Source: a virus | DNA length: 64,000 bases | Direction: 5' to 3' (one strand) | Virus genome (UHGV): UHGV-1378817 | In this document: piece after piece, positions 39,563 to 58,766 of the stretch | Numbering within the stretch: position 1 is the first letter of the stretch | How the letters are laid out: the number at the start of each line of letters is the position of its first letter | Position numbers and translations under genes: made by a program | Notes under the pieces: model-generated | Told to the model about the DNA's origin: nothing | Databases searched by the model: none | Seen by the model: only the letters and a program-made list of their open reading frames with translations

Positions 39563-39699
39563 GGTGCTACAATGGGTGTGATTAAGAAATTAGTCCCAAA
39601 TGTAGAGATTGCATGCTTTGAAATTATGTTTGCAATCGCAGTTGTAGTTAATGTGTTAGGTTACGGCTATTAATATCAAATAATTGAGGAGACCTCTAA

Positions 39700-42073: not shown

Positions 42074-42360
42074 TGAAAGATCTGGTTAAGATTAAGATTA
42101 AAGATACCAACGGCGAACTCAGCCATTTTGGAATTAATGATGGTGACGAGCTGATCGCACACCTACCTACCAAGGAAGTTGTAAGCAAAGCAGTTGCCGG
42201 AGAAGAAGATGCAATGCAGGCTGCAGGTGTGGATGAAAACTATGTAGCCATGTGTATGTGCCGAGATCAGGTTGTTCTGTATAAAGCGTATCGACCAAAC
42301 GGAGCCACGGAGTGGCTTGTATTCCGACCTGAAGGATATGAAATCCTAGAGGCACTATGA
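42073..42360 (+). CDS. small acidic protein
   Basis: MKDLVKIKIKD...YEILEAL. Confidence 0.4.
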   Translation: MKDLVKIKIKDTNGELSHFGINDGDELIAHLPTKEVVSKAVAGEEDAMQAAGVDENYVAMCMCRDQVVLYKAYRPNGATEWLVFRPEGYEILEAL

Positions 42361-42449
42361 TAAATCTTGCCAAGGTTGCAATGGTCCTGCTAATTATTTG
42401 CTGGTCAGTAACCTTAACACTGTGTCTTGTATTTCAGTAAGGTGCTTAT

Positions 42450-42868: not shown

Positions 42869-43120
42869 ATGACGAAGATTGACTTGAATGCTGGCGACCA
42901 TGTTGTTGTCAAATGCATTGGAGATTATCTTGGATTCACAATCGGCAATACTTACGAAGCGGTAGTGGCGAAGGTTTATCATGATAAAGTCCTCAGTCTT
43001 GTATTTGACTGCGATGATGATGGGGATGACCGATACGTCTGTGAGGTGCTGGCACGAGACGATAGTGAAGACCAGAAATTCCTGGTTATTGAACTGAACG
43101 GTATTTTTGTAGAACGTTAA
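42869..43120 (+). CDS. hypothetical protein
   Basis: ORF 42803-43120 trimmed to Met MTKIDLNAG with AAGGAG RBS. Confidence 0.4.
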   Translation: MTKIDLNAGDHVVVKCIGDYLGFTIGNTYEAVVAKVYHDKVLSLVFDCDDDGDDRYVCEVLARDDSEDQKFLVIELNGIFVER

Positions 43121-43148
43121 TTTAAAACAACATAAGGAGACTCTTACT

Positions 43149-43454
43149 ATGGCTAAATCTAAAGTTGAACTGTTCACCTCTCTTCCTTCTGACACTGCAG
43201 AACGTGATCGCCTTCGCAAAACAATCGAAGAGCTGGTGGAACTCCAGCTTCAGATTAAAGATCTGAAAGATGCCATCAAGGATATCATTCTCGTTGAGAA
43301 GCAGGATCATCTGTATTCTCCTAAATTCATCAAATCTCTGGTGGCTACAGAGTTCGATATTCGCTATGAGGCTGAAAAACGTCGCGCTAAAATCGAAGAA
43401 GAGGTTGAGCACATGTCTGAGGCAGACATTCTGTTCAAACGCTCTGTAGAATAA
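43149..43454 (+). CDS. hypothetical coiled-coil protein
   Basis: 101-aa charged ORF with AAGGAG RBS. Confidence 0.4.
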   Translation: MAKSKVELFTSLPSDTAERDRLRKTIEELVELQLQIKDLKDAIKDIILVEKQDHLYSPKFIKSLVATEFDIRYEAEKRRAKIEEEVEHMSEADILFKRSVE

Positions 43455-43458
43455 TGAC

Positions 43459-43490
43459 AAAGAGAGGGGCCTGGGCCCCTCTTTCACTAT
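43459..43490 (+). terminator. rho-independent terminator
   Basis: AGAGGGGCC-tgg-GCCCCTCT followed by a T-rich stretch, immediately after the stop of ORF 43149-43454. Confidence 0.55.
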
Positions 43491-43835
43491 TTGCAAAAGG
43501 AACCAGCTATGAGAATGCCAATCACTGTGAAAGAGCTAAATGAACGTGATGCAGGTGGTCTATGGCCTGCACGAAAAATCCGCTGCGTCTATATGAAAGA
43601 GAATCTTGAACATCTTGATCAACAGATCAAGGTCGGTGATATTTTTGAGGTCTTCTATTCCAATCGTCGTAACTGGGAAACCATTCAGCCTTCTGGTTTT
43701 GTTCTTGCCAAACTTGACACTGGAGAAGTGATTATCCCTGGGTTGGATATTGTCTTCGAAATTATCCAGGAGTGGGATCCGGATAAGATTAGATACGAAG
43801 AATTATTCGGTAAAGGTATTATCAAACCTGTGTGA
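43491..43835 (+). CDS. hypothetical protein
   Basis: 114-aa ORF. Confidence 0.4.
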   Translation: MQKEPAMRMPITVKELNERDAGGLWPARKIRCVYMKENLEHLDQQIKVGDIFEVFYSNRRNWETIQPSGFVLAKLDTGEVIIPGLDIVFEIIQEWDPDKIRYEELFGKGIIKPV

Positions 43836-44143
43836 GGTGGATTATGTCTACAAAGGCGGCTAAATACTCCTACATGCCATCAACCTCTGCAGAGGTAGAC
43901 TTTAGTTTCGATGTGTTTCCACTGTTTGAGGCGGTTCTGGCATACCCAACAATACTATCTACTCCTGAATCACTTGTGCCTGTTAAGTTGCAGAACGCTA
44001 TGCATTCTATGCACTACAACAATAAATGTAGGCACAGATGGTGTCAGGACGAGGAAAAAGATTTGGACAGTTTGAGAGATTTTGACAGTCACCTTTTGAC
44101 ACCTTTCAGCTACTCCAACCTTGATAAGCCCTCATGGGTATAG
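43832..44143 (+). CDS. hypothetical protein
   Basis: 103-aa ORF. Confidence 0.35.
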   Translation: MRWIMSTKAAKYSYMPSTSAEVDFSFDVFPLFEAVLAYPTILSTPESLVPVKLQNAMHSMHYNNKCRHRWCQDEEKDLDSLRDFDSHLLTPFSYSNLDKPSWV

Positions 44144-44298
44144 CAAAATATCAAATTTAAGACACCTAGGACGCTCTGTGGCGTCCTTTTCTTTATCTGG
44201 TGCACGATTGCATACCTTGGACAGGTAATCTCATTATAGAGCGCTTTAGAAAGAATTTGACTGTTTTCCTAAACCACCAACATCTTGAGGTATCATTT

Positions 44299-44520
44299 AT
44301 GAAAATTGTTCTATACGACGATAACGATATTGCTCTCAGTACTGTATATTTTGAAGATGATGATCTGCCAGATTTTCTACGTGTCTCCACATTTGCTGCA
44401 GAATACGGTGTGAGCCGTCAGGCAATGCATAAGTACCGAGAGTATCAGAATTGCTCATGGGCTGAGACCTTTATGCACTTTATCCAACGTAAGCAGGCTC
44501 TGGACCGCAAAAAGCTTTAA
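44299..44520 (+). CDS. small putative DNA-binding protein
   Basis: ORF 44200-44520 trimmed to Met MKIVLYDDND; FAAEYGVSRQAMHKY looks HTH-like. Confidence 0.35.
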   Translation: MKIVLYDDNDIALSTVYFEDDDLPDFLRVSTFAAEYGVSRQAMHKYREYQNCSWAETFMHFIQRKQALDRKKL

Positions 44521-44620
44521 GTGTATATACTTTTTATTTCGAGCGTAGCGAGAACGCACGTCCGTTTTGACCCAAATCACCATACGCTCGGATTTTAACC
44601 AAACCCTCGCGGCGTTTCTG

Positions 44621-44649
44621 TTGACACATTACCGCTCTCGTGATAGTAT
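44621..44649 (+). promoter_or_regulatory. sigma70-like promoter
   Basis: TTGACA-17 nt-TAGTAT; GGAGAA RBS and ATG at about 44682 downstream. Confidence 0.45.
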
Positions 44650-44681
44650 CCACACATCGTTTGGAGAATATGGGATACACA

Positions 44682-44771
44682 ATGAGAACATTGTCCGAAG
44701 TTTTAGTGGTGATCCTGATGATCATTACGTCCATAGCGGCTGTTGCCGGAATACTCACGGGTGGAACATGA
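44682..44771 (+). CDS. candidate small hydrophobic peptide (~29 aa)
   Basis: MRTLSEVLVVILMIITSIAAVAGILTGGT, single TM-like helix, own promoter and RBS; overlaps two featureless longer ORFs (44567-44980 plus, 44534-44953 minus) so the coding frame here is unresolved. Confidence 0.3.
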   Translation: MRTLSEVLVVILMIITSIAAVAGILTGGT

Positions 44772-45101
44772 TCAACACGCATGCATCTGAAGAGACATCT
44801 GAAGGAGTGACCATATGTCCATTGGCTGATCCAGTGAAAGGGGAAAACTTCGATTCTGAAGATTCTCCATCTTCGCTCCAGATAGATCCTGAGGCTGATG
44901 ACTTGACGTGGGGAGACATCGTAGATATCTGGTTCTCTATTATGCCTGAGCACGAAGAGTTCAGAGGTGGTAGACTATGAAGCACCGAGCCCACACAGGT
45001 TCCTCATGCTAAAGCATGGCCTGAAGAGGCAAACGTGCATAATTCCCGTGCATTGGAACGTATAAAACCCTGTTCACACTCTCATTTCCAGAGGAGATTT
45101 C

Positions 45102-45317
45102 ATGAAGATAGAAATATTTGGTGGGGCTGACAACACTCGTGGCCTGATTTACCTTGAATTTGATGAATCATACCTGCCAGAGGTGTTAAATATAGACTCT
45201 GTTGCTGAGGCTTTGGGAGTAAACCCTAAAGAACTCCACTCTTGTGCTGAGATCGATGGTTGGGAAGAGACCATGAACATTGATTTCAGTGAAGTAGAGG
45301 ACGAACCGCTGGACTGA
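45102..45317 (+). CDS. small acidic protein
   Basis: MKIEIFGG... 71 aa with GGAG RBS; last gene of the plus-strand block. Confidence 0.4.
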   Translation: MKIEIFGGADNTRGLIYLEFDESYLPEVLNIDSVAEALGVNPKELHSCAEIDGWEETMNIDFSEVEDEPLD

Positions 45318-45446
45318 CACACAATTAGCTGCCCGGCTAAAGTGCTGGAAGCGCACCTATAACACATCTTTCAACTAAATTTCCTACCACCACAATCACT
45401 TACCTCCAACACATGACTGTTTGCTTGTTTAGTGAGCAGTCATGCC

Positions 45447-45474
45447 TTGACATTCTTGCCTATCCTGATAAAAT
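45447..45474 (+). promoter_or_regulatory. sigma70-like promoter reading into a GC-rich non-coding segment
   Basis: TTGACA-16 nt-TAAAAT with no ORF downstream; followed by about 270 nt of unusually GC-rich sequence ending in a G-run and T-rich stretch near 45730-45760. Confidence 0.4.
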
Positions 45475-47725
45475 TAAGTTCTTCTCTTTTCTTTTACCGA
45501 GTAATTCGGGTTTTCTGTTCTCTTCGGTTTGAAGGGGTATGGAGATACACCTGAGTGAACAGGGTGAACAACCGAACCATTGGCTATGGCATTAGCATGG
45601 CGAAGCGGACGGGTGACGAAAGAGGGGCCGGAGGACACCAGTCACTGCCATATGATATATGGGTGATAACCTGAAGAGTCTGAATAAGTGTTTAAGTACC
45701 AGTCAGAGGAAAAGGTGAATGGTAGCCGAAGGGGGAGGGGGGTTTCTTGTATCTTTAATTTGTATATTATGTATACACTTGTAAACCAATATCATCTAGA
45801 TCTGTTTACCACACAAAGTGGATAGAGACAAATATTACCTATTAAACTTGAATTATTTATAGAAAATACCACAACACCACTTAAGTCTTTGATTTTACAC
45901 ACAAATCTTACAGATATTCAACCTCCATATTTAACATACCTGTAACATATTCCATACTCTACCTGCCTGATCAATTTCCCCAACTACATCCCTCATATTT
46001 CCCCTGTCTGTACTACCCTGCCCCACCGGGAGTCCCGTCATATCTGGCTTTCCAGCAAATATCACACCCACAAATATCATGCCTGAAGAGGGTTTCATCC
46101 CATAATACCTGCCTTGCCTGAAGAGCGCTTCATACACCACGTAAATTTTTTAATTGACCTCCCCTGCCCCGCCGGAGAGGTTGGCTTTTCCCACACAGAC
46201 CTGAAGAGTCAGCCAGAAATATCTGAATAGGCCCAGTTCTACCACGATTTTGACCTGACCTACAGGAGCGCTGCCAGGCGGACGAAATGGGAATACTTCT
46301 CATTCTTATAACAATTCTCAAATATCGAGGCAGTGAGGCAAATTAATAGGCCAGGCCGTTCACACAGTGGCACAACATTTGCAACCTATCTTGTGGGGGT
46401 GAATGAGAATACCTATCATTGTGAGAACCATTATCATTACGGGCAATTTAACATAATACCCATTATGCGCACCACTGGTGATACATACAGGGATTGATAA
46501 CACGAGTTACAGTTTACGCATATAACAATCATATTTCTTACTATTTGTGTGGGATATAGTTAGCAGCCGATAGATTAGATATTGACCTGTGGACTTCCAA
46601 CCGTCTAGACGTCTAAGCGCCCACACAACAAGGCTTATACATACATTACTGAATGTAAACAGGGCCGCAAAAATGCTACCATACCAGTTTGTAAATTTTC
46701 ATGCAGCACTTGACAAAGAGGAGGAAAACTTGTCTGACACAATGTCACACAATATGACACAATAACGGCTGTTACCATTCCATATCTCACTGTTTACGCA
46801 TAGACTGTTTACGCCTGGATAGTTTACACCTTGACAGTTTACACAGATATGATAAGCCATGACATTCGTTTGCATGAAAACAATTAGCAAGTTAACAATT
46901 AACAAGTTAATAATATATGACATAATATAAAAGCAGGGCAACTATTAGAAGATCTATAGTTGCCTTGCTTGTTATGTCATGATTAACTAAATACAAGGCA
47001 ACTATGATCTGATTAATAGTTTGCAGACAAACTATCACGGGGGTGATGGTTACTGCTTTTATATTATGTCGCGACTCCGTCGCGCCATGCCATTCGTTTG
47101 CATAGTTGCCTTATTGTTACAGATAAAATAATTGTATTGTTAATTATTTCTTATCTTTCTATTAGTCATCTAATGATTCCGGTTAGTATAGTAACGTACA
47201 GTAAACATTAGACGACTAAATATTTCTATGTTTATGATAACCTATCGTGACAATTCCGGACTGTTTACGAAAAATGTTGACACCTGAGCTGATTTATGTT
47301 ATGCAATTTAAACGAATAATTATTTTATGCAGGTATTGACTATTCCGTTATTCTATGGTTGGAATAAATACTTAGCAAGCTATAGAATGGTGAGCGTACG
47401 TAAATTCTGAGATTTGTCGGCTATAGTTATACTCGATTTTTCACGTAGAACACGCTTTTTGGTTTGTGTAAGTGTATGACTTATAAAGATTTTTAGTTGT
47501 TGACAAGATATTGAAGATGTGCATCAGGTTAAATTTTGTGCAATAGCTGCATTACGTGCAATTTTGGAAGGAAAACTGGTAAAAATAGCACCGATACCAC
47601 ACAATGAAAGGTTATGCAATAGCTATTTTATATGTATATTTGTACAGTGTGCAGGATTGATGGCTCGTCAATTATTCCACTTGCCAGGTAGGGCCGTTTA
47701 TGGTAGGGGAAGAGCAGACAAAAAG

Positions 47726-47744
47726 AAAGGGGCCTAAGCCCCTT
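47726..47744 (-). terminator. rho-independent terminator (minus strand)
   Basis: On the minus strand AAGGGGC-ttag-GCCCCTT followed by TCTTTTT, immediately downstream of the stop of ORF 47763-48182. Confidence 0.5.
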
Positions 47745-47762
47745 GATAATTCAGTTAAAAAA

Positions 47763-48182
47763 TTATAATGATTCGTATATTTCAAAAATCCGATTTGCCA
47801 GGTCGTTACGGTAGCGGAATTTTTCCTCACGTTTGATCATCAGATCTTTAAAGCCGTATTCTTTAAGCACTTCATTAACTTTATGGCGGCATACCTTCAT
47901 ATTATCTTGAGCGTCACCAATAAACTTGTTGCTGTGGTGCATTGCTTTAATTTCTTCTTCCAGGACCAGGGCAACTACCCGTACCGGATCAAGCTGGTAG
48001 GCGGTAACATCGATGCGGCATTGTAGACGGCTTTTAACGTCTGCCACCGGATATACTGCAACCTCTTCCCCGTCAACATTGACAATAATTAGTTTACCAT
48101 CGATTTCGAATCCTTTCGCCGCCGGACCGTGACAAAAAGCGTTATCAAAGCTATATGCCGGATTATTAGATTTAATGTTCAT
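47763..48182 (-). CDS. hypothetical protein
   Basis: 139-aa ORF. Confidence 0.45.
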   Translation of the reverse strand: MNIKSNNPAYSFDNAFCHGPAAKGFEIDGKLIIVNVDGEEVAVYPVADVKSRLQCRIDVTAYQLDPVRVVALVLEEEIKAMHHSNKFIGDAQDNMKVCRHKVNEVLKEYGFKDLMIKREEKFRYRNDLANRIFEIYESL

Positions 48183-48326
48183 GGTGTTTTTACCTCTTAG
48201 TTAATTTTCTTACAACTTCCCTTCAAAAAAGAATATAGCAAAACTGCCGATCCCTGTCAACCAAGGATGGCATAATTTTTATGTGATCAAGGGGCTTTAT
48301 TGCCCCTGACCATGTAACTTGTTGTA

Positions 48327-48590
48327 TTATTTGTTATTCATCCAGTTTTCCCAAGCTGCCTGATAATCTGCCTCACTGCGGCGGATCTCTTCTTGCTCTT
48401 CAAGCCGGATCTCTTCTTCTAGGTACCCCAAGATATCGGCTTTTTTGGTCTGGCGTAACATCCAATCATCTTTTTTACGGGTAAAGATCTTATATGCTTT
48501 CTCGCAAACCTCTTTTTTGCTACCTTTTTGGACTTCAAGAACTTTGTAGGCCATGTACTGAACTAGTTTGAGCTGATCAAGACGTTTCAT
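48327..48590 (-). CDS. hypothetical protein
   Basis: 87-aa charged ORF. Confidence 0.4.
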   Translation of the reverse strand: MKRLDQLKLVQYMAYKVLEVQKGSKKEVCEKAYKIFTRKKDDWMLRQTKKADILGYLEEEIRLEEQEEIRRSEADYQAAWENWMNNK

Positions 48591-48653
48591 GATGTTTACC
48601 TCTTTATGGGGTTCTGGTTTGGTGTGGGCCTTTTGGCCCGTGTCATTATCTTA

Positions 48654-48926
48654 TTACTTACGGCGGCAAAATTCAAGTGTTTTTAATTGATAATCTTCCT
48701 CAGCTTGGAGTACAACCGCCTCGATCATTTCGTTGGCATTGGTGAAGCCATACCCTTGAGCGAACTCATCCGCGCCACCTTCGTGATCATGTTCTGCGTT
48801 CATCGCTTCCACAAAATGGAATTCAAGATTATTGAGGTAAGGGCTTGATGTTCCGTCCTCTTTTTCGATGAGATCCCAGATAGCATTAAAACGTGATTCG
48901 ACTTCTTGATTAATCCAGCTTGACAT
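48654..48926 (-). CDS. hypothetical acidic protein
   Basis: 90-aa ORF. Confidence 0.4.
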   Translation of the reverse strand: MSSWINQEVESRFNAIWDLIEKEDGTSSPYLNNLEFHFVEAMNAEHDHEGGADEFAQGYGFTNANEMIEAVVLQAEEDYQLKTLEFCRRK

Positions 48927-49139
48927 AATGTTTTCCTCTCTTCTGGTTGTTGTGTGGGCACTTTTGCCCCTTCAAGATAAATGATACCCCCACCACCTGG
49001 CAGATGTCAACGGTTTTTATAGTTTTTTATATAACAGGCACCCCCGGTGATTGTCTCCCCCCGTCGCCAGGTGCCTGCCGTGAAACAAGTATAACAAAAA
49101 ACAGGACCATTGCAAGCCCTGTTTTGTAGTTTATAAATA

Positions 49140-49331
49140 TTATATTTTTTCGCCTATGTAGTCCGGTCGGTTTTTCTCTGTCATGCGCTTTAGCAATTCT
49201 TGCATGTTGCTTATGGCTTGTAGTGTATCCCCTTCCAGGCTTGAATCGACATAATCAGGATCGTCTATGACCTTTCTATGATTATGATAACGCAGTACCG
49301 CCAATACCTTTCTAACTTGTTCGATATTCAT
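49140..49331 (-). CDS. hypothetical protein
   Basis: 63-aa ORF. Confidence 0.35.
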   Translation of the reverse strand: MNIEQVRKVLAVLRYHNHRKVIDDPDYVDSSLEGDTLQAISNMQELLKRMTEKNRPDYIGEKI

Positions 49332-49480
49332 TTTTACCGCTCTTTAAAACAAGGTGCCAACCGTTTCCAATAGATCACTAACTATCAGGACAATACTGAT
49401 CAGCACATATCTAACCATAAGGGGAAAGAGCGCCAGCGATCCCGCCACAATCCCCAAGGTGATGATTATCTTTCTCATGG

Positions 49481-49765
49481 TTAACGGTTTACGTAAGTTT
49501 TCCCGTTCACGGTTATGGGCAGATCCTCCAGGTCTGGATCTTCCTTAAGGTCGCGAGCAAGCTCACCGCACCGGATACCCTCGAATCCGTAGTACTCTGT
49601 CGTGCCGTCCTTAAAAGTTTTAGCGGCAAGGCATAAGCGATAAGTAACCCCGATTCGATTGACGGCATGAATATCCGTTAGATTAACCTCTTTTGCCAGC
49701 TCTTTAGCCATTACAGGCGCATTAAGTCCAACAACCAGGGCAACCACTGCGATCATCTTTTTCAT
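49481..49765 (-). CDS. small secreted protein
   Basis: MKKMIAVVALVVGLNAPVMAKE signal-peptide-like N-terminus. Confidence 0.45.
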   Translation of the reverse strand: MKKMIAVVALVVGLNAPVMAKELAKEVNLTDIHAVNRIGVTYRLCLAAKTFKDGTTEYYGFEGIRCGELARDLKEDPDLEDLPITVNGKTYVNR

Positions 49766-49856
49766 TGTGTCTATCCTCTTTCTGCTACGTTTAAGGCGGA
49801 GGTAACCGCCTGTTTATGCTTTGTTGGTTAATTTTCGGGTATCGGTATAAATTAAA

Positions 49857-50072
49857 CTATGCTGTACGTTCAACTATAACAACGGTTTGGGGGATCTCAC
49901 CTTCCACCACTAATAAGGCCTTTTTCTGCGTGATGGATATCTTTACCCGTTGCAGCGTGGCGGTGAAGTCTTTCATTTCGTCACGTGGTGTTTTAGTGCA
50001 ATACCAGATCTCAGGCTTGCCGATCTGTAAGTTGCGTAAAAATTCCGTTTTGCCTGTTTTGTTAGTGATCAT
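49857..50072 (-). CDS. hypothetical protein
   Basis: 71-aa ORF. Confidence 0.35.
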   Translation of the reverse strand: MITNKTGKTEFLRNLQIGKPEIWYCTKTPRDEMKDFTATLQRVKISITQKKALLVVEGEIPQTVVIVERTA

Positions 50073-50263
50073 TTGCCAACCTCACCCGATACCGTTGGAA
50101 GACAAGATCACATTAGCCATGGTTGCAATCAGGCCAATACCCAGGGCAATAACCAGGATCACCGCATCAATTAATTTCTGTTTCATGGTGTTTATTCTCT
50201 TCTGTTAGTAACCTTATTCATGGGGCCGCTACTACAGCCCCAGGGTAAGGCGGCTATGTGCTT

Positions 50264-50551
50264 TTAGTGTTTCATTCCAACCATCGCGGCACGGATCGCC
50301 GTAGTGCTGTACTTGAAGCCGTCCGGGGTCTTATCTTGTCCGGTTAGCTCCAGAAAAAGCATCATATCCCGCGCCGCATCATTACGATTAGCATTAGCGT
50401 TAATAAAGCCTTGGGCCAACCGGTACAATGACTCATCGTTATTAATCCAAAGGCTTACATTCCAATGAGTTTTGTTTTTGTAACCGTTATAACCTTTATT
50501 GCTTTTCATGGTGTTTACCTCTTCTTTGTTCCAGGTGGCGGACCATTCCAC
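50264..50551 (-). CDS. hypothetical protein
   Basis: 95-aa ORF. Confidence 0.4.
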   Translation of the reverse strand: MEWSATWNKEEVNTMKSNKGYNGYKNKTHWNVSLWINNDESLYRLAQGFINANANRNDAARDMMLFLELTGQDKTPDGFKYSTTAIRAAMVGMKH

Positions 50552-50602
50552 CGCCTTATGTATTATGCTTTGTTAGATGGTTGTTTGTTGTCAAACTATT
50601 TT

Positions 50603-50782
50603 AACGATAATCATCGTACGCTTTATTAACCTGGCGAATATAACATTCAAAAGCCAGATCAATAGATTTATATTCACGGATATATTCACCATAGGAAACC
50701 ACATACATTTCTATAGCTTCCTCATATGCGAGGAGAATAGAATCTAAGCCTACGATCTCAGTCTTTGCAATAATAGCCATGA
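50603..50782 (-). CDS. hypothetical protein (~59 aa)
   Basis: Manual translation MAIIAKTEIVGLDSILLAYEEAIEMYVVSYGEYIREYKSIDLAFECYIRQVNKAYDDYR; preceded on the minus strand by TTGACA-16-TAGTAT promoter, GC hairpin and AGAGGA RBS. Confidence 0.35.
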
Positions 50783-50855
50783 TTTTTATCCTCTTTGTGG
50801 TTGGTGGGGCTTGTTGCCCCCTTTGATTTATATACTACAGTCTTATATGGTCATG

Positions 50856-51089
50856 TCAACTATTTTCAAAAAATTTTTCTGCTGTAATATTTTTCCCGGT
50901 AGGGTTCGCTACTTTCAAAATTTTATCATGCACTGGACGCCCAAAAGAATAAGCGCCGTACACAGTGCACCAATAATCGCCGTCAGGCTGTACTATTACC
51001 GCCGCATAGGGTACGCCTTTTTCGTTTTTGCTGACAAAATAGATCACGTTGCCATTAATAGCCTCGGCGCGTTTAATTTGTTCCATCAT
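50856..51089 (-). CDS. hypothetical protein
   Basis: 77-aa ORF. Confidence 0.4.
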   Translation of the reverse strand: MMEQIKRAEAINGNVIYFVSKNEKGVPYAAVIVQPDGDYWCTVYGAYSFGRPVHDKILKVANPTGKNITAEKFFENS

Positions 51090-51145
51090 GATGATTTGCC
51101 TCTCTTTATTTTCATAATTGGGGGGCCTTTTCGGCCCAGCCAGGT

Positions 51146-51430
51146 TTATTTATTGATAGCGTGCAGCGGGAAAGGTACGCCAGGTTGATAGATAACTTTT
51201 ACAACCTCATCAGGACAAAAGAAGTTGCAGAACTCACCGCAATAGGCCTCATCCTCTTTCAACTCTTCATCAATATACTCAAAAAAGTAGTCGATGCTTG
51301 GATAATCTTGCCCTGGGTTATAGTCAACCATTGTCAGGACCAGTTCAAGATCGTTGCGTAGGATATGCATACCCGCTTTTAAGTATTTTGCTTCCATTTC
51401 TACTACATCGCCAGCGGTAACAATAGCCAT
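51146..51430 (-). CDS. hypothetical acidic protein
   Basis: 94-aa ORF. Confidence 0.4.
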   Translation of the reverse strand: MAIVTAGDVVEMEAKYLKAGMHILRNDLELVLTMVDYNPGQDYPSIDYFFEYIDEELKEDEAYCGEFCNFFCPDEVVKVIYQPGVPFPLHAINK

Positions 51431-51657
51431 GGTTTTAACTCCTATCTATCCGGTTAATGATTGGGGGCCGCCCCCCTGATGAGTCCTATTATCCATATTG
51501 TAGGGCTTGATGCAAGTACTTATTTAAAAAATTTTTTAAGCGCTCCGTATGCCGTTGTAACGCCAAAATAATAAAGGCCATGCAACCGCATAGCCTTTAT
51601 GTGATTATATCGCTGCAGGCCCTGCCAGGGGCCTTATTTTGCATCATTTTACCGGAA

Positions 51658-51957
51658 CTATACAGAGAAAACATCGTTCACAATAGCGATCACAATGCCG
51701 CCCACCTTGTCACGGTCAACAATGCACAAATCACCATAAATCATGTGGTAGTCTGGATGATCTTTCACGGAATAGTCAATGAGTGTTTTCTTGTCGTCCA
51801 GCTTTGTAACTTCCATTCTCATAACGATATGAGAATCATCAAAGGCATTATTCCGAAAAGTCATAGCCTGACCACCAGGGCACCCAGTGATCTCAACTTC
51901 CACACCGTCTACGATCTGACCATCAAAGAAATAAAGATTATTAGCCGGGATAAACAT
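51658..51957 (-). CDS. hypothetical protein
   Basis: ORF 51658-51966 trimmed to ATG (MFIPANN) with AAGGAG RBS; downstream of palindromic promoter copy 1. Confidence 0.4.
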   Translation of the reverse strand: MFIPANNLYFFDGQIVDGVEVEITGCPGGQAMTFRNNAFDDSHIVMRMEVTKLDDKKTLIDYSVKDHPDYHMIYGDLCIVDRDKVGGIVIAIVNDVFSV

Positions 51958-52001
51958 GTTTATCACTCCTTGTTAACTGCGTGTTATTTTACCACGATTA
52001 A

Positions 52002-52047
52002 AATTTACTTTACCGATGGCCCTGAAGTCAAGGCCATCTAAAAATAA
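52002..52047 (-). promoter_or_regulatory. conserved palindrome-embedded promoter element, copy 1
   Basis: About 46 bp, near-identical to copies at 55714 and 56335; on the minus strand a TTGAC -35 sits inside the inverted repeat GATGGCC...GGCCATC. Confidence 0.55.
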
Positions 52048-52049
52048 AT

Positions 52050-52250
52050 TTACAGGCCTACAATCTCTTTGATTCGTTTTACTGCTGCCTCAGCGCCTTG
52101 GGGGTAGAAATTATGGTAACCGATCACGCGAGTGATACTAATCGCCGTTTGATGATCTTCATAATCGCCCTTGAAGATTTCTTGACCGTCAATCAGCACG
52201 GCAATTTTTTCTTCTTTTTTGAAGTTAATAACGCGGATATTGTTGCTCAT
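52050..52250 (-). CDS. hypothetical protein
   Basis: 66-aa ORF. Confidence 0.4.
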   Translation of the reverse strand: MSNNIRVINFKKEEKIAVLIDGQEIFKGDYEDHQTAISITRVIGYHNFYPQGAEAAVKRIKEIVGL

Positions 52251-52727
52251 TTTGTTTCTCCTTTCTGGTTTTTGTGTTGGTGGGGATTAGCTCCCCGTTG
52301 ATTGTCATTATCCACATTCTGGACCGGATTGCAACACCCCGGAAGAAAAATTTTTTAAAAAGATAGGCCCCATGATCGGGGGCTGTTCTTAGTTACTTAC
52401 TGCGATAAAGTACATCCCTACGCCTAGCAATATTTCAAGGGCGATGATCTCAAGCCATACCATAACCCGGCGCGCCTTATCGGTGCGGGGCTTATCCTTG
52501 GTTGTCATCGTCTCCCCCTTTCCTCCTGGTAGTAGTGACGCGATCTACAATGACCCCCAGGAGTCCTATCACGACACACATCACGAGAAAAATTATCTCC
52601 GCTGTTGTTCGGTCCATTATTATAAAAGTCCTCAAGATCAGGCCTGAAAATAAAGCTTTCGTTATTGAATCCATCACGCCAGGCGGCTGGCTTCAAATCT
52701 TCATTAAAGGGATTAATTAACGTGGTA

Positions 52728-53099
52728 TTATTTAAACGGCTGGCCCACATATTTTCTATTCCTCTCAAATAGGCGATCCGCCTCAGTTAAACATATCTCA
52801 TGGGCTTGATCTCTGGTTTTAGCTTCATCAAAAACCTGTTGCGCCAGGCTGCAACGTAGGGAGACTGGAAGATCACTATAATAGGCGTTGACAAACGTTT
52901 GAGCGTCGTACAGGTCTGAAAATACTTTACCCTTTCTATTATCGCCTTTGTCAACAATTGCAAGGATAACAAGTACAATAGTTGCAACCACCCCCAGGAA
53001 AATAGATATAATAAACCATAAAAAGGCGGATCTACCTATCTTGCCAGCGATCCAGGCGTTGAACAAGGCAACTACTACAGCCAAAATAATAAATTCCAT
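52728..53099 (-). CDS. membrane protein
   Basis: ORF 52728-53132 trimmed to Met MEFIILAVVVALFNAWIAG; two hydrophobic helices; AGAGG RBS. Confidence 0.45.
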   Translation of the reverse strand: MEFIILAVVVALFNAWIAGKIGRSAFLWFIISIFLGVVATIVLVILAIVDKGDNRKGKVFSDLYDAQTFVNAYYSDLPVSLRCSLAQQVFDEAKTRDQAHEICLTEADRLFERNRKYVGQPFK

Positions 53100-53163
53100 T
53101 CTATGTACCTCTTTTGTAGTTCTGTTTAACAATAAGGCGGCAAATATGCCGCCTGTTACCTGA

Positions 53164-53544
53164 TTAAAAATTATCGCCGTAAATCTTTCCGCTTTCTACC
53201 CATACCACCACGCGAGGCATACTATCCCACACGTCTTGTTTTAGATTGAGCGCGTGCAATTCTTCGGTGGTGCTCATACCGGGCACGGGCTGATTGTATA
53301 CTGCAAAACGACCGCCTGCATAATCATAGGCCAGGGTTAAATCACACTGGATCATCTTTTTGATCATGGCATTAAGCATGGCGTTAGCCGCATATTGATC
53401 ACGTTTTAAAGGCAACTCTTTGATTAGTTTGCGATAGTTTTCGATATGGTCGCACACTGTTTCACGAGGAAGATCTTTCATATCTTCACGGAATGTAACC
53501 AGGTTAAACATAACGGTGTCAATAGCCTTGGTAGTGTTTTTCAT
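53164..53544 (-). CDS. hypothetical protein
   Basis: 126-aa ORF. Confidence 0.4.
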   Translation of the reverse strand: MKNTTKAIDTVMFNLVTFREDMKDLPRETVCDHIENYRKLIKELPLKRDQYAANAMLNAMIKKMIQCDLTLAYDYAGGRFAVYNQPVPGMSTTEELHALNLKQDVWDSMPRVVVWVESGKIYGDNF

Positions 53545-53634
53545 GATGTTATCCTCTTTGTTTTGTGTTGGGGCAAACGTCTTGCCCCCTTGAGTTTTAA
53601 TATAGCAGGTTTTTAGGTTATTGCAACACTTTAT

Positions 53635-54258
53635 TTATGAAAAAGTCATCTCACCATATTCATCGACATCAAACCGCCAATCATTGGCCTCGATAAGGCC
53701 GATCAGGTTTTCTGCGGTGAACTGTTCTAGATAGGCCTCCTTCAGGTCTACGTAAACCTTGCGGGATAGCTCCCGTACCGTCTCGGTGATCAGTTCTTCC
53801 AGGTCTTCCACTTTGTTTTCTTGTTTGGCGGTCAGATCTAGCCAAGTGGTATCAATGTACCCGCTTACAGTGTTTTCATGGCTGTAATGGCTGTACTTGT
53901 CGCGTTCAACACTGGCTGATAACTCGCCATCGTGCATTGTGCCGAACAAGTGACGAATTGATCGGAACTTGGTCAGGGCCTTTACTTTACGCAAAAATTT
54001 TTCTAAATCCACGTTTTCAGCACTGATTGACGCGCCGTCACCCTGGCACCAAAAGCCGGACCAATGTACTTCGGTATCTTCAAGGCCGTACTCTGGAAAG
54101 ATATATTCTTTGTAGTGTTCAATTACACTTTCTGCAAAAAAGTTATCCCCGCTGTGTTCTTCTCTTTCGCGGACCATTTCAATAGCTTTTTCTTTTTGTT
54201 CGTCGGTCAGCACGTCGAAAGATAAATTGTAACCTGTGGTAATGTTAACGGTGGTCAT
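53635..54258 (-). CDS. hypothetical protein
   Basis: 207-aa ORF; contains FWCQGDGASIS; no family assignable by eye. Confidence 0.45.
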   Translation of the reverse strand: MTTVNITTGYNLSFDVLTDEQKEKAIEMVREREEHSGDNFFAESVIEHYKEYIFPEYGLEDTEVHWSGFWCQGDGASISAENVDLEKFLRKVKALTKFRSIRHLFGTMHDGELSASVERDKYSHYSHENTVSGYIDTTWLDLTAKQENKVEDLEELITETVRELSRKVYVDLKEAYLEQFTAENLIGLIEANDWRFDVDEYGEMTFS

Positions 54259-54332
54259 GATATTTTCTCCTATTTTCTTTGTTAGTGGCGGGAAAACTTC
54301 CCGCCTGTGTGCTTAAGTATACTTATTGAGAT

Positions 54333-54593
54333 TTACTTGTCAACACTATTTTTTAAATTATTGTGGCGTAAAATATTCAAGATCTCTTCAACGTCATCAA
54401 CACGGCGGCAATTTTTAAACGCTACCAATTGCCCCAGGATTTTAATCACTGGACGGCCTTGCCAGTGCCCTTGGAGAAAGCGCGCTTTAACTTTATCGGT
54501 GGAACTATCACGCCACCAAATAGCCTTGTTGTTGCAGTAGTAAAAATTATTCAGGATAACATCAACTTTATCAAAATTTTTTAATTTACGCAT
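54333..54593 (-). CDS. hypothetical protein
   Basis: 86-aa ORF preceded by a minus-strand TTGACA-16-TATACT promoter. Confidence 0.4.
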   Translation of the reverse strand: MRKLKNFDKVDVILNNFYYCNNKAIWWRDSSTDKVKARFLQGHWQGRPVIKILGQLVAFKNCRRVDDVEEILNILRHNNLKNSVDK

Positions 54594-54997
54594 GGCGTTT
54601 ACTCCTTTCTCTCTTTGATGTGGTTAGTATAGCTAACCTGTTGACGATGTCAATGATATTTTTAACGCCATGAAACGGCCCTGGGCGATGTTTTCAGGTT
54701 AAAGGGGGCGATTGCATAGGTGGGGCCTTTTTGGCGCTTACAGGGCCAACCAGGGGCGCTATTCGTAGGATAGAAATAAAAAGCCCCGCACAATGGCGGG
54801 GCGTTGGTTGTTATTTGCCTTTGTGGCGGTATCGTTCCGCCTGTCGTTCACGTTCCAAAAGCAGGCCCGGTAATTTGCGATCATAATGATTCCGCCAGAT
54901 CTTCCCAAATCTTTTTGGCTTATTCAGTTTATTGTTGCGCTGGCGGCGTTCCGGCAGCTCTTCGGAAGCATGAGATCGCTTTACAATCTTCTCAAAA

Positions 54998-55351
54998 TTA
55001 ATCTTCATATATTCCCCCCTTGCTAACTTCAATATTGGCCTGAATAGCCCGGATACGGCGCTTTATAACTTCCTGATCTGTGTGATCGTATCCCCAAAAG
55101 TCTACGATTTTTGCGCCTCCAGCCTTTAGGCGGTATAGTGTTTCTTGCATCTTGTAAGCCGGGATCGGTCGCGGTGTTACCTGGTCGCCCTTCTCATTCT
55201 TGTACTTGATAATGTAGTCTTCATTGTCGTTGAATACCCAAAATGGGTATTCTGTGAGCGCGTTGCTCTCTTTTTCGTTTTTAGATTGGATCTTGTTTAC
55301 AATTAAAGCCGTAGCAATAGCGCCAATAATAAAACTTGCCCCGCTGATCAT
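54998..55351 (-). CDS. membrane-anchored protein
   Basis: ORF 54998-55414 trimmed to Met MISGASFIIGAIATALIV; AAGGAG RBS. Confidence 0.4.
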   Translation of the reverse strand: MISGASFIIGAIATALIVNKIQSKNEKESNALTEYPFWVFNDNEDYIIKYKNEKGDQVTPRPIPAYKMQETLYRLKAGGAKIVDFWGYDHTDQEVIKRRIRAIQANIEVSKGGIYED

Positions 55352-55426
55352 GTACTTTCTCCTTTCATTGTGTTGATAAACTGTCTTTATAGATGGCCCT
55401 GCTACCAGGACCACCGAAAAAACAGC

Positions 55427-55672
55427 TTATTTGACGATACCGACAAAACAGATCCCGCCTTCCCCTATATAGGCAATATCGGTAATTTTATAATTTGTCA
55501 AGATCCGCGTGTTCAGATCATTAATAAAATCGGTCATCGCGTTGGTGTAGTTGTCTTCCGTGTCTAAGGCATAATCCCAGGTGTAAACCTTTTTACGTCC
55601 GAAGCCTTTTACCATGATACGGGCGCTTTTGGTGTTGGTAGGGGCATAATATTTAGTGATTAGTGCTGCCAT
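55427..55672 (-). CDS. hypothetical protein
   Basis: 81-aa ORF with AGGAG RBS; downstream of palindromic promoter copy 2. Confidence 0.45.
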   Translation of the reverse strand: MAALITKYYAPTNTKSARIMVKGFGRKKVYTWDYALDTEDNYTNAMTDFINDLNTRILTNYKITDIAYIGEGGICFVGIVK

Positions 55673-55713
55673 GGTTTTAACTCCTATGCATTAGTTCAGT
55701 GTTAACAGTATAA

Positions 55714-55759
55714 AGTTTACTTTATTGATGGCCCTAAAGTCAAGGCCATCTAAAAATAA
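55714..55759 (-). promoter_or_regulatory. conserved palindrome-embedded promoter element, copy 2
   Basis: AGTTTACTTTATTGATGGCCCTAAAGTCAAGGCCATCTAAAAATAA on the plus strand; same element as copies 1 and 3. Confidence 0.55.
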
Positions 55760-55761
55760 TC

Positions 55762-56103
55762 TTACTCGTTTTCTTCCAGCTCCGCAAGCTCTTCTTTTGC
55801 TTCTTCCAACCCTGTCTGTAATTCCTGGTATTCTTCATCGTCCTCAATATCCAGGCTGTCGATGTAGTCGCTAAATCCGCAGCGGTAAGCGATAGGATCT
55901 AGCTCCTTGAGGATACGCGACGGAAGAAAAGAAATGTTTCCGATCATAATTTCGCCGTAGATCTCGTCTAACCATTCATCATAGTTTTCGTCGTACTTGT
56001 CCTCGTCGATTTCAAAGTTATCGATCTTATTCTCAAGGTCTGCGATCTGTTTTTTCAGCGCGGCGATCTGCATAGCTTTTTCTGCGGCGGTCATAGTAGT
56101 CAT
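55762..56103 (-). CDS. hypothetical acidic coiled-coil protein
   Basis: 113-aa ORF, highly acidic C-terminus. Confidence 0.4.
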   Translation of the reverse strand: MTTMTAAEKAMQIAALKKQIADLENKIDNFEIDEDKYDENYDEWLDEIYGEIMIGNISFLPSRILKELDPIAYRCGFSDYIDSLDIEDDEEYQELQTGLEEAKEELAELEENE

Positions 56104-56179
56104 GGTGTTTTTCTCCTTTTGTGTGTTCTGGGAAGTTTTCCCGTTTATGTGCTTATTATATCGATTTAAGTTAGCTTGT

Positions 56180-56302
56180 CAATTAAAAGTTTAAGAAAAA
56201 TTTTGCGACACCGTTGGCGCTACCCATCAACATTTGCGCCAGGATGTACCCAATGATGCAAACGATGATGGTTACCTTTGTGTGCTGGCGTGTAGTACTC
56301 AT
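56180..56302 (-). CDS. small hydrophobic membrane peptide (~40 aa)
   Basis: Manual translation MSTTRQHTKVTIIVCIIGYILAQMLMGSANGVAKFFLNF; G-rich RBS; downstream of palindromic promoter copy 3; below the ORF-track cutoff. Confidence 0.35.
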
Positions 56303-56334
56303 CTTTAAGCCCCCTTTTCCGCTCAACTGTGGTT

Positions 56335-56380
56335 AGTTTACTTTATTGATGGCCCTGGTGTCAAGGCCATCTAAAAATAA
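56335..56380 (-). promoter_or_regulatory. conserved palindrome-embedded promoter element, copy 3
   Basis: AGTTTACTTTATTGATGGCCCTGGTGTCAAGGCCATCTAAAAATAA; differs from the other copies mainly in the 3-nt palindrome centre. Confidence 0.55.
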
Positions 56381-56382
56381 GC

Positions 56383-56787
56383 TTAATAAGTTTTCAGTAC
56401 TTTCCCGTCCAATCTGTCAAGCTGGATCTCGATAGCTGCAGAAAACCTATTGTAAACCACATCACCCATAGAATCCAACCAGTCTATGACATTATACACT
56501 TGCTCTTTGTTCTTGCAGGTCCGGATCCGTTTCATGATGTAAGCCGGATCAATATTGGTACTCTCGTTGGTGTTCCCCTGTACCTTGTTTGCCGTATTAG
56601 TTACATCTTTAATGGCCTTTACCACCACCTGGAATGGCTTTAAGGTGCCTTTTGCGTTCATCTCACGCGCTTTTGCGGCGCGGTTGTTATATGTTACACA
56701 ACGGCGGCAAATGTTGATCAAATGCATGTCAATAATTTTTTCATCGTTTGCCAACTCGTTCATGATGCGGCGTACGTTCTTATTCAT
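56383..56787 (-). CDS. hypothetical protein
   Basis: 134-aa ORF; minus-strand TTGACA promoter, GC hairpin and RBS upstream. Confidence 0.45.
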   Translation of the reverse strand: MNKNVRRIMNELANDEKIIDMHLINICRRCVTYNNRAAKAREMNAKGTLKPFQVVVKAIKDVTNTANKVQGNTNESTNIDPAYIMKRIRTCKNKEQVYNVIDWLDSMGDVVYNRFSAAIEIQLDRLDGKVLKTY

Positions 56788-56869
56788 GATCTTTTTCCTT
56801 TGTGCTGGCGGGAAACATTCCCGCCTTTTGTGTCTAGTTTATTTAAATTTTGCAGCGTGTCAATGATTT

Positions 56870-57268
56870 TTATTCGTGGGCGCATGTTACAATGTGCTTT
56901 TTATAGCCCAGGTGGTCAGCAAGTGCCGACAAAAACTCTTCTTCGTAGATCCAGCCGTCGGCAGTGATCCCCATAGCATTTAATGCGCTCTCAAGTGCTG
57001 CGTTAGCTTTATCGTAACCGTGACCGCTCGCCTTGCCGCCAGTATAACCGTACTTATTGTTCTTGTTGTCGTGAATCCAAAACACGCAGTAGTGAGTGTT
57101 ACCACTGGCGGCGGCATAATACCGGATCTCAGCTACTTCGTGCAAATTATTGTCATCGTCCAGGCCCACCAGATTATAAGCCTTGTAAAATCCACGATCA
57201 CGGCGGCAGTTCTTGACATCAGAAAAAGAAAAGTCCGCATTATCAAAATTAAAGGTAGTGGTTTTCAT
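56870..57268 (-). CDS. hypothetical protein
   Basis: 132-aa ORF. Confidence 0.45.
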   Translation of the reverse strand: MKTTTFNFDNADFSFSDVKNCRRDRGFYKAYNLVGLDDDNNLHEVAEIRYYAAASGNTHYCVFWIHDNKNNKYGYTGGKASGHGYDKANAALESALNAMGITADGWIYEEEFLSALADHLGYKKHIVTCAHE

Positions 57269-57332
57269 GATTTTATCCTCTTAGTGTCTTTTGTGCTTTT
57301 AGTGTATTTGGTGTCGGACTATATGTCAATAC

Positions 57333-57530
57333 TTATTTTTTATTAAACCAGTGGTTGATCTGTCCTTTTGTCAGGGCGCAACGATTAAGCTGTTGCCGGG
57401 TATAGCTCTGACCGCGACGGAATTTATAAAGGCCTTGCCCGTTGTTGATGGTTACGTCCACCTGGCAAACCATTTGATCGGTGACCACCTGGCGAGTGTT
57501 GCGACGTACTTTGATCCCGTATGCGTTCAT
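57333..57530 (-). CDS. small basic protein
   Basis: ORF 57333-57608 trimmed to Met MNAYGIKVRRNTRQ with AGAGGA RBS; minus-strand TTGACA-16-TATTAT promoter near 57590-57620. Confidence 0.4.
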   Translation of the reverse strand: MNAYGIKVRRNTRQVVTDQMVCQVDVTINNGQGLYKFRRGQSYTRQQLNRCALTKGQINHWFNKK

Positions 57531-57611
57531 AAATTTATCCTCTTTACTGGTTAGTGCGGTGTTGTTCACCTTGTAGGGTAATAATACCATGATTAACCTT
57601 GTTGTCAACGA

Positions 57612-57752
57612 TTATTTTAAATTATTTTTATGATAGAATCCACCTGCCGCCCCCGCCAGGTTAACCACCATTTTTTCGTACTCTTCTTTATGTTCTCGCG
57701 CTTCTGTATCATTAATCACTACATTTCCCAGGTGAGTAGCATTACCTTTCAT
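57612..57752 (-). CDS. hypothetical small protein (~46 aa)
   Basis: Manual translation MKGNATHLGNVVINDTEAREHKEEYEKMVVNLAGAAGGFYHKNNLK with GGAGGT RBS. Confidence 0.3.
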   Translation of the reverse strand: MKGNATHLGNVVINDTEAREHKEEYEKMVVNLAGAAGGFYHKNNLK

Positions 57753-58766
57753 TTTTGTACCTCCTCTTCAATTGTTTTCCCTACAGCATGGGCCTACCAG
57801 GTTTGCAAGATTTCACCCTCTCCCACCTGGTCAGTTAGGTCCTGCCAGGCTGGCCCCGCCAGGTTGCAACGGTTAGCGCATCAGGTTAGAAAAATTTTTT
57901 GAAAAGGTGTTGACAGCGGCCCCGCCAGGTGGCACAATATACCTATCGAAAGGACGGCAGGCACCGGTGACGGGGGAGACAACCACCGGGGATGGGCGCT
58001 GCATAAAATGAGAACGGTTATCATTATCATTTAAAAATTTATGCAAAAAATCCTTGCCTTCTTTGTCCTGTGTGATACTATAATAACAAGCCGGGGCAAC
58101 AGGGGCCGGGAGACAATCACCGGGCCTGCCCGTTATTCTGCAAACGAGAATGATTATCATTCAAAATTCTAAATGAGAACTCCTCGCATTTAATAAATTT
58201 AATTAGCACGCTAATTACCCTCCGTAACAATTTCCTATAAAATAGTATCCACTAAAATATTCCCATATAGAAATTTTAAAAATCCATTTCTGAAAACGAA
58301 AAATCGATTTCGTCCCCAAAAATTTCAGGTCGAGAGCTGGAACGATTTCCAGAAAATCCGATTCAGAAAACGAAAAACAGATCGAGTACTGAGAAATTTA
58401 TCGAGAAAAATTTTCAGAAAATTCAATCTTTGAAACGAAAAACAGATCGAGTACTTGGAAAGCTGTACCGCAACTTCAAGATAGTGGCTGGATTATTGCC
58501 ATAAAAGGCCAAGGGCGAGTGGGAAAGTTCTGGTAGAAGGGTGTGAGCATACGCGGAAAATCTGGAATGGTAGCCCGGAATATGACGCAAACGATAGGAT
58601 GAGTGGTTCAGCTCATCGTGTCTACCCTGAAAAATCCATTTTAGTTTTCGATCCGTTTTCTGATTTTCTAAGAATTTTAAAATATCTGGCCTGGTGAAAT
58701 ATCAAAAAGGAGGAAATCCATTTTAGAAATCCCCCTTATACTTGATATGCCAGAAATTTTCAAGTA
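57753..58766. repeat. 1-kb ORF-free, repeat-rich intergenic region
   Basis: No credible ORF; GCCCCGCCAGGT(T/G) repeats, two tandem paralogous units, 68-bp-spaced direct repeats, AAATCCATTT motifs; itemised in findings. Confidence 0.55.

Follow-up and report, generated by a model that had tools for sequence, protein, structure and literature searches.

Two conserved open reading frames for small, hydrophobic single-helix peptides in an rV5-like coliphage

The DNA considered here, called the window throughout, is a stretch of 64,000 nucleotides of the virus genome UHGV-1378817. Its subject is two short open reading frames (ORFs), ORF1 and ORF2, which encode hydrophobic peptides of 29 and 39 amino acids. 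The window belongs to an rV5-like Escherichia coli myophage of the genus Vequintavirus and shows 95-97% DNA identity to its relatives over both ORF regions. The closest-matching genomes include DrSchubert, nimi and the rV5_ev series, and about 120 GenBank records match. Both ORFs are very probably real genes for small membrane proteins, a conclusion that is decided by comparative conservation, because hydrophobicity alone is weak evidence.

The two loci and their products

ORF1 begins with the ATG at 44682, ends with a stop codon at 44769-44771 and encodes the 29-residue peptide MRTLSEVLVVILMIITSIAAVAGILTGGT, exactly where the first-pass annotation had placed a peptide of about 29 residues (44682-44771). 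The TTGACA-17-TAGTAT promoter claimed in that annotation is also present, with its hexamers at 44621 and 44649 and a score of 10/12. In 15/15 sequences, among them a contig (L010) with 73% identity to the window, the -35 hexamer is invariant and the -10 hexamer reads TAGTAT or TAATAT. The Shine-Dalgarno (SD) sequence of ORF1 varies among the relatives and is weak in FV3, YP-6 and the window itself.

An in-frame ATG at 44670, upstream of this start, would lengthen the peptide to 33 residues. This ATG is missing in L010, the most divergent relative, and the three extra codons that follow it have accumulated non-synonymous changes only, yet they stay purine-rich (GGA, GAG, AGG, GAA, AAA). For these reasons the stretch from 44670 is read as the SD sequence and 5' untranslated region belonging to the start at 44682. 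Judged from these alignments, ATG 44682 is the likely conserved start, giving 29 residues.

A terminator-like hairpin that is kept in relatives lies 5' of the ORF1 promoter, at a place where the Gotham record carries a terminator predicted by ARNold. The ORF1 unit is therefore a separate transcription unit. At its other end the stop codon of ORF1 overlaps the start codon of a gene for an acidic 70-residue protein in the sequence ATGA, an arrangement seen in most relatives. The overlap suggests translational coupling, and ORF1, the first cistron of a short operon, is probably coupled in translation to the acidic protein. The overlap is gone in L010, where the 70-residue protein gene has an SD-like motif of its own and ORF1 is kept. 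In phage ECP32 (L015, about 1785-1855, corresponding to window position ~44741) a 70-nt insertion, flanked by the 13-14-nt direct repeat TGTTGCCGGAATA, lies inside ORF1. It shortens the product to 26 residues with the C-terminus ...AGICL, leaves the helix in place and uncouples ORF1 from the downstream gene.

ORF2 is on the minus strand. Its coding sequence (CDS) runs from 56302 to 56186 and is closed by a TAA codon at 56185-56183; the product, MSTTRQHTKVTIIVCIIGYILAQMLMGSANGVAKFFLNF, has 39 residues. The first-pass annotation had described an ORF of about 40 residues at 56180-56302. The ORF exists, but its true length is 39 residues and its extent 56183-56302, and the strand had been omitted. 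That it follows the third copy of a palindromic promoter was correctly seen, as ORF2 lies directly downstream of copy 3. This repeat is about 60 bp long (TTATTTTTAGATGGCCTTGACnnnAGGGCCATCAATAAAGTAAACT) and occurs three times on the minus strand of the window (52018-35, 55730-47 and 56351-68). A strong SD sequence, GGGGG/AGGAGG, is located 7 nt before the ATG and is conserved in relatives.

AlphaFold2 models each peptide as one continuous helix, with a predicted local distance difference test score of 89 for ORF1 and 78 for ORF2. The maxima of the Kyte-Doolittle 17-residue mean are 2.83 and 2.39, respectively. The ORF1 peptide is little more than a bare transmembrane (TM) segment (VLVVILMIITSIAAVAGIL) with a short MR/KTLSE head. 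The ORF2 peptide has three parts: a basic N-terminus (MSTTRQHTK, with R5 and K9), a hydrophobic core of 19 residues, one of them a conserved Gln, and a tail of 11 residues, SAN..AKFFLNF. The basic N-terminus suggests, by the positive-inside rule, that its N-terminus would be inside and its C-terminus outside.

Comparative evidence for coding

For ORF1 the window was aligned with 14 relatives and for ORF2 with 10, and both alignments included an IMG/VR contig that is only 73-78% identical at the DNA level. Neighbour-anchored searches of IMG/VR yielded 2-3 loci for each ORF, of which one was usefully divergent. Small hydrophobic ORFs are not rare in this DNA: 21 of the 497 ATG-started ORFs of 25-60 codons in the window reach a Kyte-Doolittle 17-residue mean of at least 2.3, and eight of these 21 have an SD-like motif.

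The reading frame is open in every sequence, window included (15/15 for ORF1 and 11/11 for ORF2). The divergent contig (L010/L006) encodes MKTSSEVLIVILMIIVAIAAVAEILYTL at the ORF1 locus and MSKHSYTKITVIACIVSYILAGMLMSSANSFAKFFLNF at the ORF2 locus. Variant codons in the ORF1 frame are 14 synonymous to 10-13 non-synonymous, compared to 4:24 and 6:23 in the other sense frames; this is an excess over the expected synonymous fraction of 0.28 (binomial p 0.0015). The amino-acid changes that do occur are conservative (K/R, V/I, A/V and T/A/M/V). ORF2 has 39 codons in all ten close relatives and 38 in the divergent contig. Its ratio of synonymous to non-synonymous changes is 15:10 (p 2.6e-5), whereas the other sense frames give 7:18 and 2:22, and the five other frames all contain stops in most or all of the sequences. 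Overall, the ratios in the other frames range over 1-8 : 15-24. The exception is the antisense frame at the ORF1 locus, which is also synonymous-biased (13:11) because it has its third positions in common with ORF1. The first-pass description of both as small hydrophobic single-helix peptides with promoter-like sites and ribosome-binding sites of their own is thus borne out, and both count as genuine genes.

Two long ORFs cover ORF1 and are both open in the window, one of 137 codons in the sense direction (44567-44980) and one of 139 codons in the antisense direction (44953-44534). The long sense ORF has been annotated as rV5 ORF162, A51.2 A512_106 and JEP1 JEP1_131. Within the overlap with ORF1, however, FV3 and L010 have stops in this frame and ECP32 has it broken, and in four further relatives it is stopped just 5' of ORF1. 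The antisense ORF is stopped in 12 of 14 relatives. The pattern of change supports the two-gene model of the BASEL records, in which the small peptide is followed by the acidic 70-residue protein that starts from the ATGA overlap at 44768. The long-ORF annotations are probably mis-annotations, which hide the 29-residue gene and give the 70-residue gene a wrong start.

Both peptides are confined to one phage genus. In a tblastn search of 50,697 phage records, ORF1 was found in 114 and ORF2 in 113, all of them Vequintavirus-like, out of about 120 such records. A word-seeded HMMER search of 5.8 billion proteins, with queries padded to at least 40 residues, returned only Vequintavirus phage proteins or low-complexity noise, and a full profile search with ORF2 against 1.84 billion representatives returned the same phage proteins only. 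A blastn comparison with 5,426 complete E. coli genomes gave no match for either ORF. ORF1 matches phrog_34195 (E=4.3e-21; residues 5-33 of the 33-residue form on profile positions 1-29 of 29), and ORF2 matches phrog_16391 (E=1.8e-31; residues 1-39 on profile positions 1-39 of 39). The PHROGs label of both families is 'unknown function'.

Both genes are already known, since they are annotated in relatives, and the finding is an ordinary one that would not surprise a specialist. The ORF1 product is 100% identical to Murica gp147 (P0015), and identical 29- and 39-residue sequences are already present at NCBI. The ORF2 homologue is labelled as a putative membrane protein in A51.2 and I29. Table S3 of the 2013 rV5 genome paper lists rV5 gp193 as a "membrane protein, 39 aa, 1 TMD"; promoter P192 lies next to it. 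ORF1, on the other hand, was missed or mis-framed in many records, including those of rV5, A51.2, JEP1, Gotham and FV3. The main value of the analysis lies in annotation: the frame and likely start of ORF1 are fixed where the reference genomes miss or replace it.

Surroundings of the two genes

The features of both loci, together with the lysis genes and two similar peptide genes, are given in Table 1.

Table 1. Positions of the two genes, their control elements, neighbours and other features in the window
Feature	Position	Strand	Remarks
Spanins	1414-2096		
Endolysin	12157-12627		Adjacent TM ORF at 12691-12895
Putative holin, rV5 gp129-type	35107-35334		
Small TM peptide	39572-39673	+	With SD; phrog_15151
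Terminator-like hairpin	44168-44187	+	Closes the upstream operon; 8-bp stem, 5 GC pairs, T-run
ORF1 operon promoter, sigma-70-type	44621-44649	+	TTGACA-17-TAGTAT, extended -10 TG; 10/12
ORF1	44682-44771	+	Including stop; 29-residue single-helix hydrophobic peptide; phrog_34195
Acidic 70-residue protein gene	44768-44980	+	ATG overlaps ORF1 stop (ATGA); annotated likewise in BASEL records; phrog_16356
Small TM peptide	52389-52508	-	With SD; phrog_13629; rV5 gp181 ('membrane protein, 1 TMD')
Palindromic promoter repeat, copy 2	55714-55751	-	Distal boundary of the cassette of ORF2 and the ORF192 homologue
Acidic, coiled-coil-like 113-residue protein gene	55762-56103	-	rV5 ORF192 homologue; phrog_9294; second cassette gene
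Sigma-70 promoter	56155-56182	-	TTGACA-16-TATAAT, 12/12; directly after ORF2 stop, drives the next gene; rV5 P192
ORF2	56183-56302	-	Including stop; 39-residue single-pass membrane peptide; phrog_16391; rV5 gp193
Palindromic promoter repeat, copy 3	56335-56372	-	Stem GATGGCC..GGCCATC, -35 TTGACA in the loop, 18 nt, TAAACT; 10/12

A terminal repeat of 459 bp, annotated in phage Gotham, corresponds to window positions 46277-46734, in an ORF-poor stretch described as "non-coding" by the rV5 authors (rV5 genome paper). This places ORF1 near the right genome end, about 1.5 kb from the right terminal repeat, and ORF2 about 9.5 kb from the left one, within a leftward unit of small ORFan genes. Both are surrounded by many near-consensus or consensus sigma-70 promoters and by small ORFan genes, and the same promoters were annotated by the rV5 authors (rV5 genome paper). 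No functional annotation came out of Pfam, NCBIfam and PHROGs searches with the two peptides and ten of their neighbours, and in tblastn the neighbouring proteins had no match in other genera of the Vequintavirinae.

The approximately 85 nt directly 5' of the ORF1 -35 hexamer (44536-44620) are almost invariant in all relatives, including the 73%-identical contig, and are conserved far above the flanking coding DNA. The element, present once in the window, has an RNA fold that does not stand out (z -0.88), and it may be a site through which the ORF1 promoter is regulated. The BASEL records place a GTG-started CDS of 44 codons across it, which looks doubtful. Between this element with its promoter and the upstream terminator, the window has an insertion of about 270-290 nt (~44262-44528) that is unique to this phage, with no blastn match in the 50,697 phage records. 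The insertion encodes a 73-residue ORF (MKIVLYDD...EYGVSRQAMHKYREYQ...DRKKL) that has an SD sequence and a motif resembling a helix-turn-helix; neither Pfam nor PHROGs contains a matching family.

ORF2 and the rV5 ORF192 homologue are flanked by copy 3 and copy 2 of the palindromic repeat. Phage ECP32 (L015, 12373-12602) and the IMG/VR contig L007 (149-378) have a single hybrid repeat in this place and lack the two genes, which is the signature of recombination between repeats. Since ECP32 was isolated as a plaque-forming phage, the cassette is dispensable, and ECP32 provides a natural cassette knockout for comparison. A different change is found in an 86-kb contig from a Logan assembly (P0012). 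Here the ORF194 homologue, cut after its first 65 residues, continues in frame into the final 18 residues of ORF2; the natural deletion between them has taken out the promoter repeat together with the N-terminal half of ORF2.

The hairpin of the repeat holds the -35 hexamer in its loop. On the transcribed strand the T-run precedes the stem and does not follow it, and the hairpin was not listed by the terminator scan. Because of the position of the -35 hexamer and because no U-tract follows, the repeat may serve as an operator and not as a terminator.

The last seven codons of ORF2 (AAATTTTTCTTAAACTTTTAA; 56186-56210) are A/T-rich and abut the -35 hexamer of the 12/12 promoter that follows the gene. 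The conserved ORF2 tail had been considered as a binding surface. This idea was downgraded, because the same codons might form an UP element of that promoter.

At least four small TM peptides of the window, ORF1, ORF2 and those at 39572-39673 and 52389-52508, match PHROG families over their full length. Further hydrophobic ORFs with an SD-like motif are found at 37298-37387 (+), 42357-42440 (+) and 52492-52617 (-), and all five additional peptides have 27-41 residues. Phage MaxTheCat has at least six small TM peptides in the equivalent region. Paralogy among these peptides was considered and rejected: BLASTP produced no alignment, and ORF1, ORF2 and the other 39-residue membrane peptide of the region are unrelated.

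Two observations concern the window and its relatives more generally. Within the tRNA cluster, ARAGORN reports a 'tRNA-???' of 99 nt, whose anticodon has four bases (atcc), at 2763-2861 on the minus strand; it falls in the gap between tRNA-Thr and tRNA-Ser and is unannotated in the rV5 record. About 17-19 GenBank records of the MG0656xx series, entered as 'Campylobacter phage' with the host C. jejuni, share more than 90% identity with rV5-like coliphages in the regions compared here. The host label of these records looks questionable.

Candidate functions and known counterparts

The explanation that we favour, with moderate confidence, is that ORF1 and ORF2 are genuine genes restricted to Vequintavirus and encode tiny inner-membrane peptides that are made early and have accessory functions. 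The host sigma-70 RNA polymerase would transcribe both genes early, each from its own conserved promoter. The peptides would then insert into the host cytoplasmic membrane, the basic N-terminus of ORF2 (MSTTRQHTK) facing the cytoplasm, and might act there by helix-helix contact with a membrane protein of the host or the phage. Their role would be that of host-takeover or exclusion-type factors, which are conditionally useful and not essential, and they would stand outside both the lysis machinery and toxin-antitoxin pairs. The specific proposal that such accessory peptides bind a partner protein is more tentative than the account as a whole and, taken by itself, is rather less likely to be right than wrong.

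Several points weigh against this account. The rV5 authors report sigma-70-like promoters over the whole genome (rV5 genome paper), and early timing is not provable from a sigma-70 promoter alone because such promoters are spread genome-wide. The neighbouring genes all encode proteins without an assigned function, so that no partner or target can be deduced from them. The statistics of synonymous bias come from only 10-15 related sequences of 87-117 nt. Conservation of the C-terminal codons of ORF2 could stem in part from the possible UP element and not from the function of the peptide. Literature searches found no experimental data on transcription timing, translation or localisation of either peptide in any rV5-like phage, and functional data on these genes are absent from the rV5 genome paper, the BASEL study, the CRISPRi-ART work on EdH4 and a review article on small proteins of phages.

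A broader version of the favoured account extends it to the other small peptides. In this version the unrelated single-helix peptides of 27-44 residues, some of which (e.g. ORF2) are carried on recombining cassettes resembling those of T4-type phages described below, would all be inner-membrane effectors of takeover or exclusion, with one or both of ORF1 and ORF2 possibly acting as membrane-active shut-off toxins. We regard it as unlikely.

Somewhat less likely still is that the peptides behave like type I toxins, oligomerising in the inner membrane and depolarising or permeabilising it, either as a means of host shut-off or under silencing by an antisense RNA. In size, hydrophobicity and predicted single helix both resemble the TisB-, Hok- and Ldr-class toxins, ORF1 bears the small-xxx-small motif AxxxGxxxG, and toxic early products are a known phenomenon in phages. 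The resemblance to type I toxins noted in the first-pass annotation goes no further than size and hydrophobicity, however. No family of Pfam or NCBIfam was matched at E<=10, and a search of 43000-58000 against Rfam gave no hit at E<=1. The opposite strand shows no promoter-like site scoring at least 9/12 in the approximately 100 nt around either ORF, though a small RNA of a new kind behind a weak promoter could escape notice. The mRNA fold of the ORF1 leader and coding region is not unusual (z +0.57), and the SD sequences, strong for ORF2 and weak for ORF1 in the window, are unmasked in the predicted mRNA fold. The searches described above found no copies in E. coli or other bacterial genomes, all homologues being in Vequintavirus records. 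The glycine-zipper residues of ORF1 are lost in the divergent homologue (G -> E); as the motif is not conserved in L010, it was rejected as a sign of pore formation.

It is improbable, to a greater degree, that ORF1 works chiefly as a leader or for coupling, delivering ribosomes to the start of the 70-residue protein gene, the peptide itself being incidental. The ATGA overlap of most relatives would fit such a role, and so would the tolerance of the C-terminus to change, which ends in AGICL in ECP32 and in AEILYTL in L010. Against this, the hydrophobic helix and the length are kept at 73% DNA identity, with substitutions that are synonymous-biased and conservative. Furthermore, L010 has retained ORF1 after losing the overlap, next to a downstream gene with its own SD-like motif, and in ECP32 the 70-nt insertion parts the two genes.

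The first-pass annotation also likened the peptides to holins or antiholins, and a part in lysis timing is very unlikely for either. Each has a single TM domain, as such a function might lead one to expect, and BASEL names a nearby 123-residue protein with two TM domains (a homologue of rV5 ORF183) in the same early region a 'putative holin'. Typical holins are longer than 29-39 residues, as are the candidate holins of rV5 (68-78 residues). Neither peptide has a charged hydrophilic C-terminal domain; the tails are TGGT in ORF1 and ANGVAKFFLNF, with one charge, in ORF2. A distance of 9-43 kb separates the two ORFs from the endolysin and spanin genes and from the holin candidate of gp129 type, and the ORFs lie in small-ORFan regions rich in sigma-70 promoters, not behind the late-type motifs described for rV5. 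No holin family in PHROGs or Pfam was matched, and ORF2 is missing from the isolated phage ECP32. The suggestion that both ORFs are spurious, with 44567-44980 or the antisense ORF 44953-44534 as the true gene at the ORF1 locus, can practically be dismissed: although both long ORFs are open in the window and several GenBank records annotate the sense one, relatives interrupt both with stops, and the long frame has a synonymous to non-synonymous ratio of 6:18-23 compared to 13-14:10 for ORF1.

Phages of the rV5 type serve in biocontrol and therapy, and it would be useful to learn whether their small membrane peptides are toxic, mediate exclusion or counteract defence.

The favoured account of early, accessory membrane peptides has its models in small single-TM phage effectors. 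These include SPO1 Gp56, from a host-takeover module, the T4 exclusion proteins Imm and Sp, and the 37-residue LysM of levivirus M, which blocks MurJ. In SPO1, many small early genes with strong promoters are located near a genome end. What ORF1 and ORF2 would have in common with these effectors is a short membrane helix, made early in several cases, that works by binding a membrane protein. The likeness is one of analogy only, because ORF1 and ORF2 have no sequence relationship to any of them.

The E. coli type I toxins TisB, Hok, Ldr, Ibs, ShoB, Zor and DinQ are likewise shorter than 50 residues and have one dominant hydrophobic helix. In contrast to these toxin genes, ORF1 and ORF2 are found in a virulent phage, have an exposed promoter and SD sequence, and show no signal of an antisense RNA. 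The closest counterparts are the GenBank entries for the same proteins, Murica gp147, BASEL bas50_0136 / bas57_0135, rV5 gp193 (rv5_gp188), HdK5_00024 and bas48_0107. Neither these nor the PHROG families differ structurally from ORF1 and ORF2, and the entries have no assigned function.

For the ORF2 cassette a counterpart exists in T4-type phages, in which promoter-early stem-loop (PeSL) repeats flank ORFan genes (Arbiol et al. 2010, PMC2839356; Comeau et al. 2014, PMC4122927). PeSLs are located in hyperplastic regions beside variable ORFans (PMC2839356; PMC4122927). The repeat described here belongs to a different lineage, the Vequintavirinae, has a different sequence and is present in only three copies in the window. 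Unlike a PeSL, it has its -35 hexamer within the loop of the hairpin, and the stem lacks a U-tract behind it, which makes a terminator function doubtful. The arrangement is nevertheless similar. Two direct repeats, each uniting a stem-loop and a sigma-70 promoter close to consensus, enclose ORF2 and its neighbour and, as with PeSL cassettes, close relatives differ by the precise loss of the cassette, which leaves one hybrid repeat behind.

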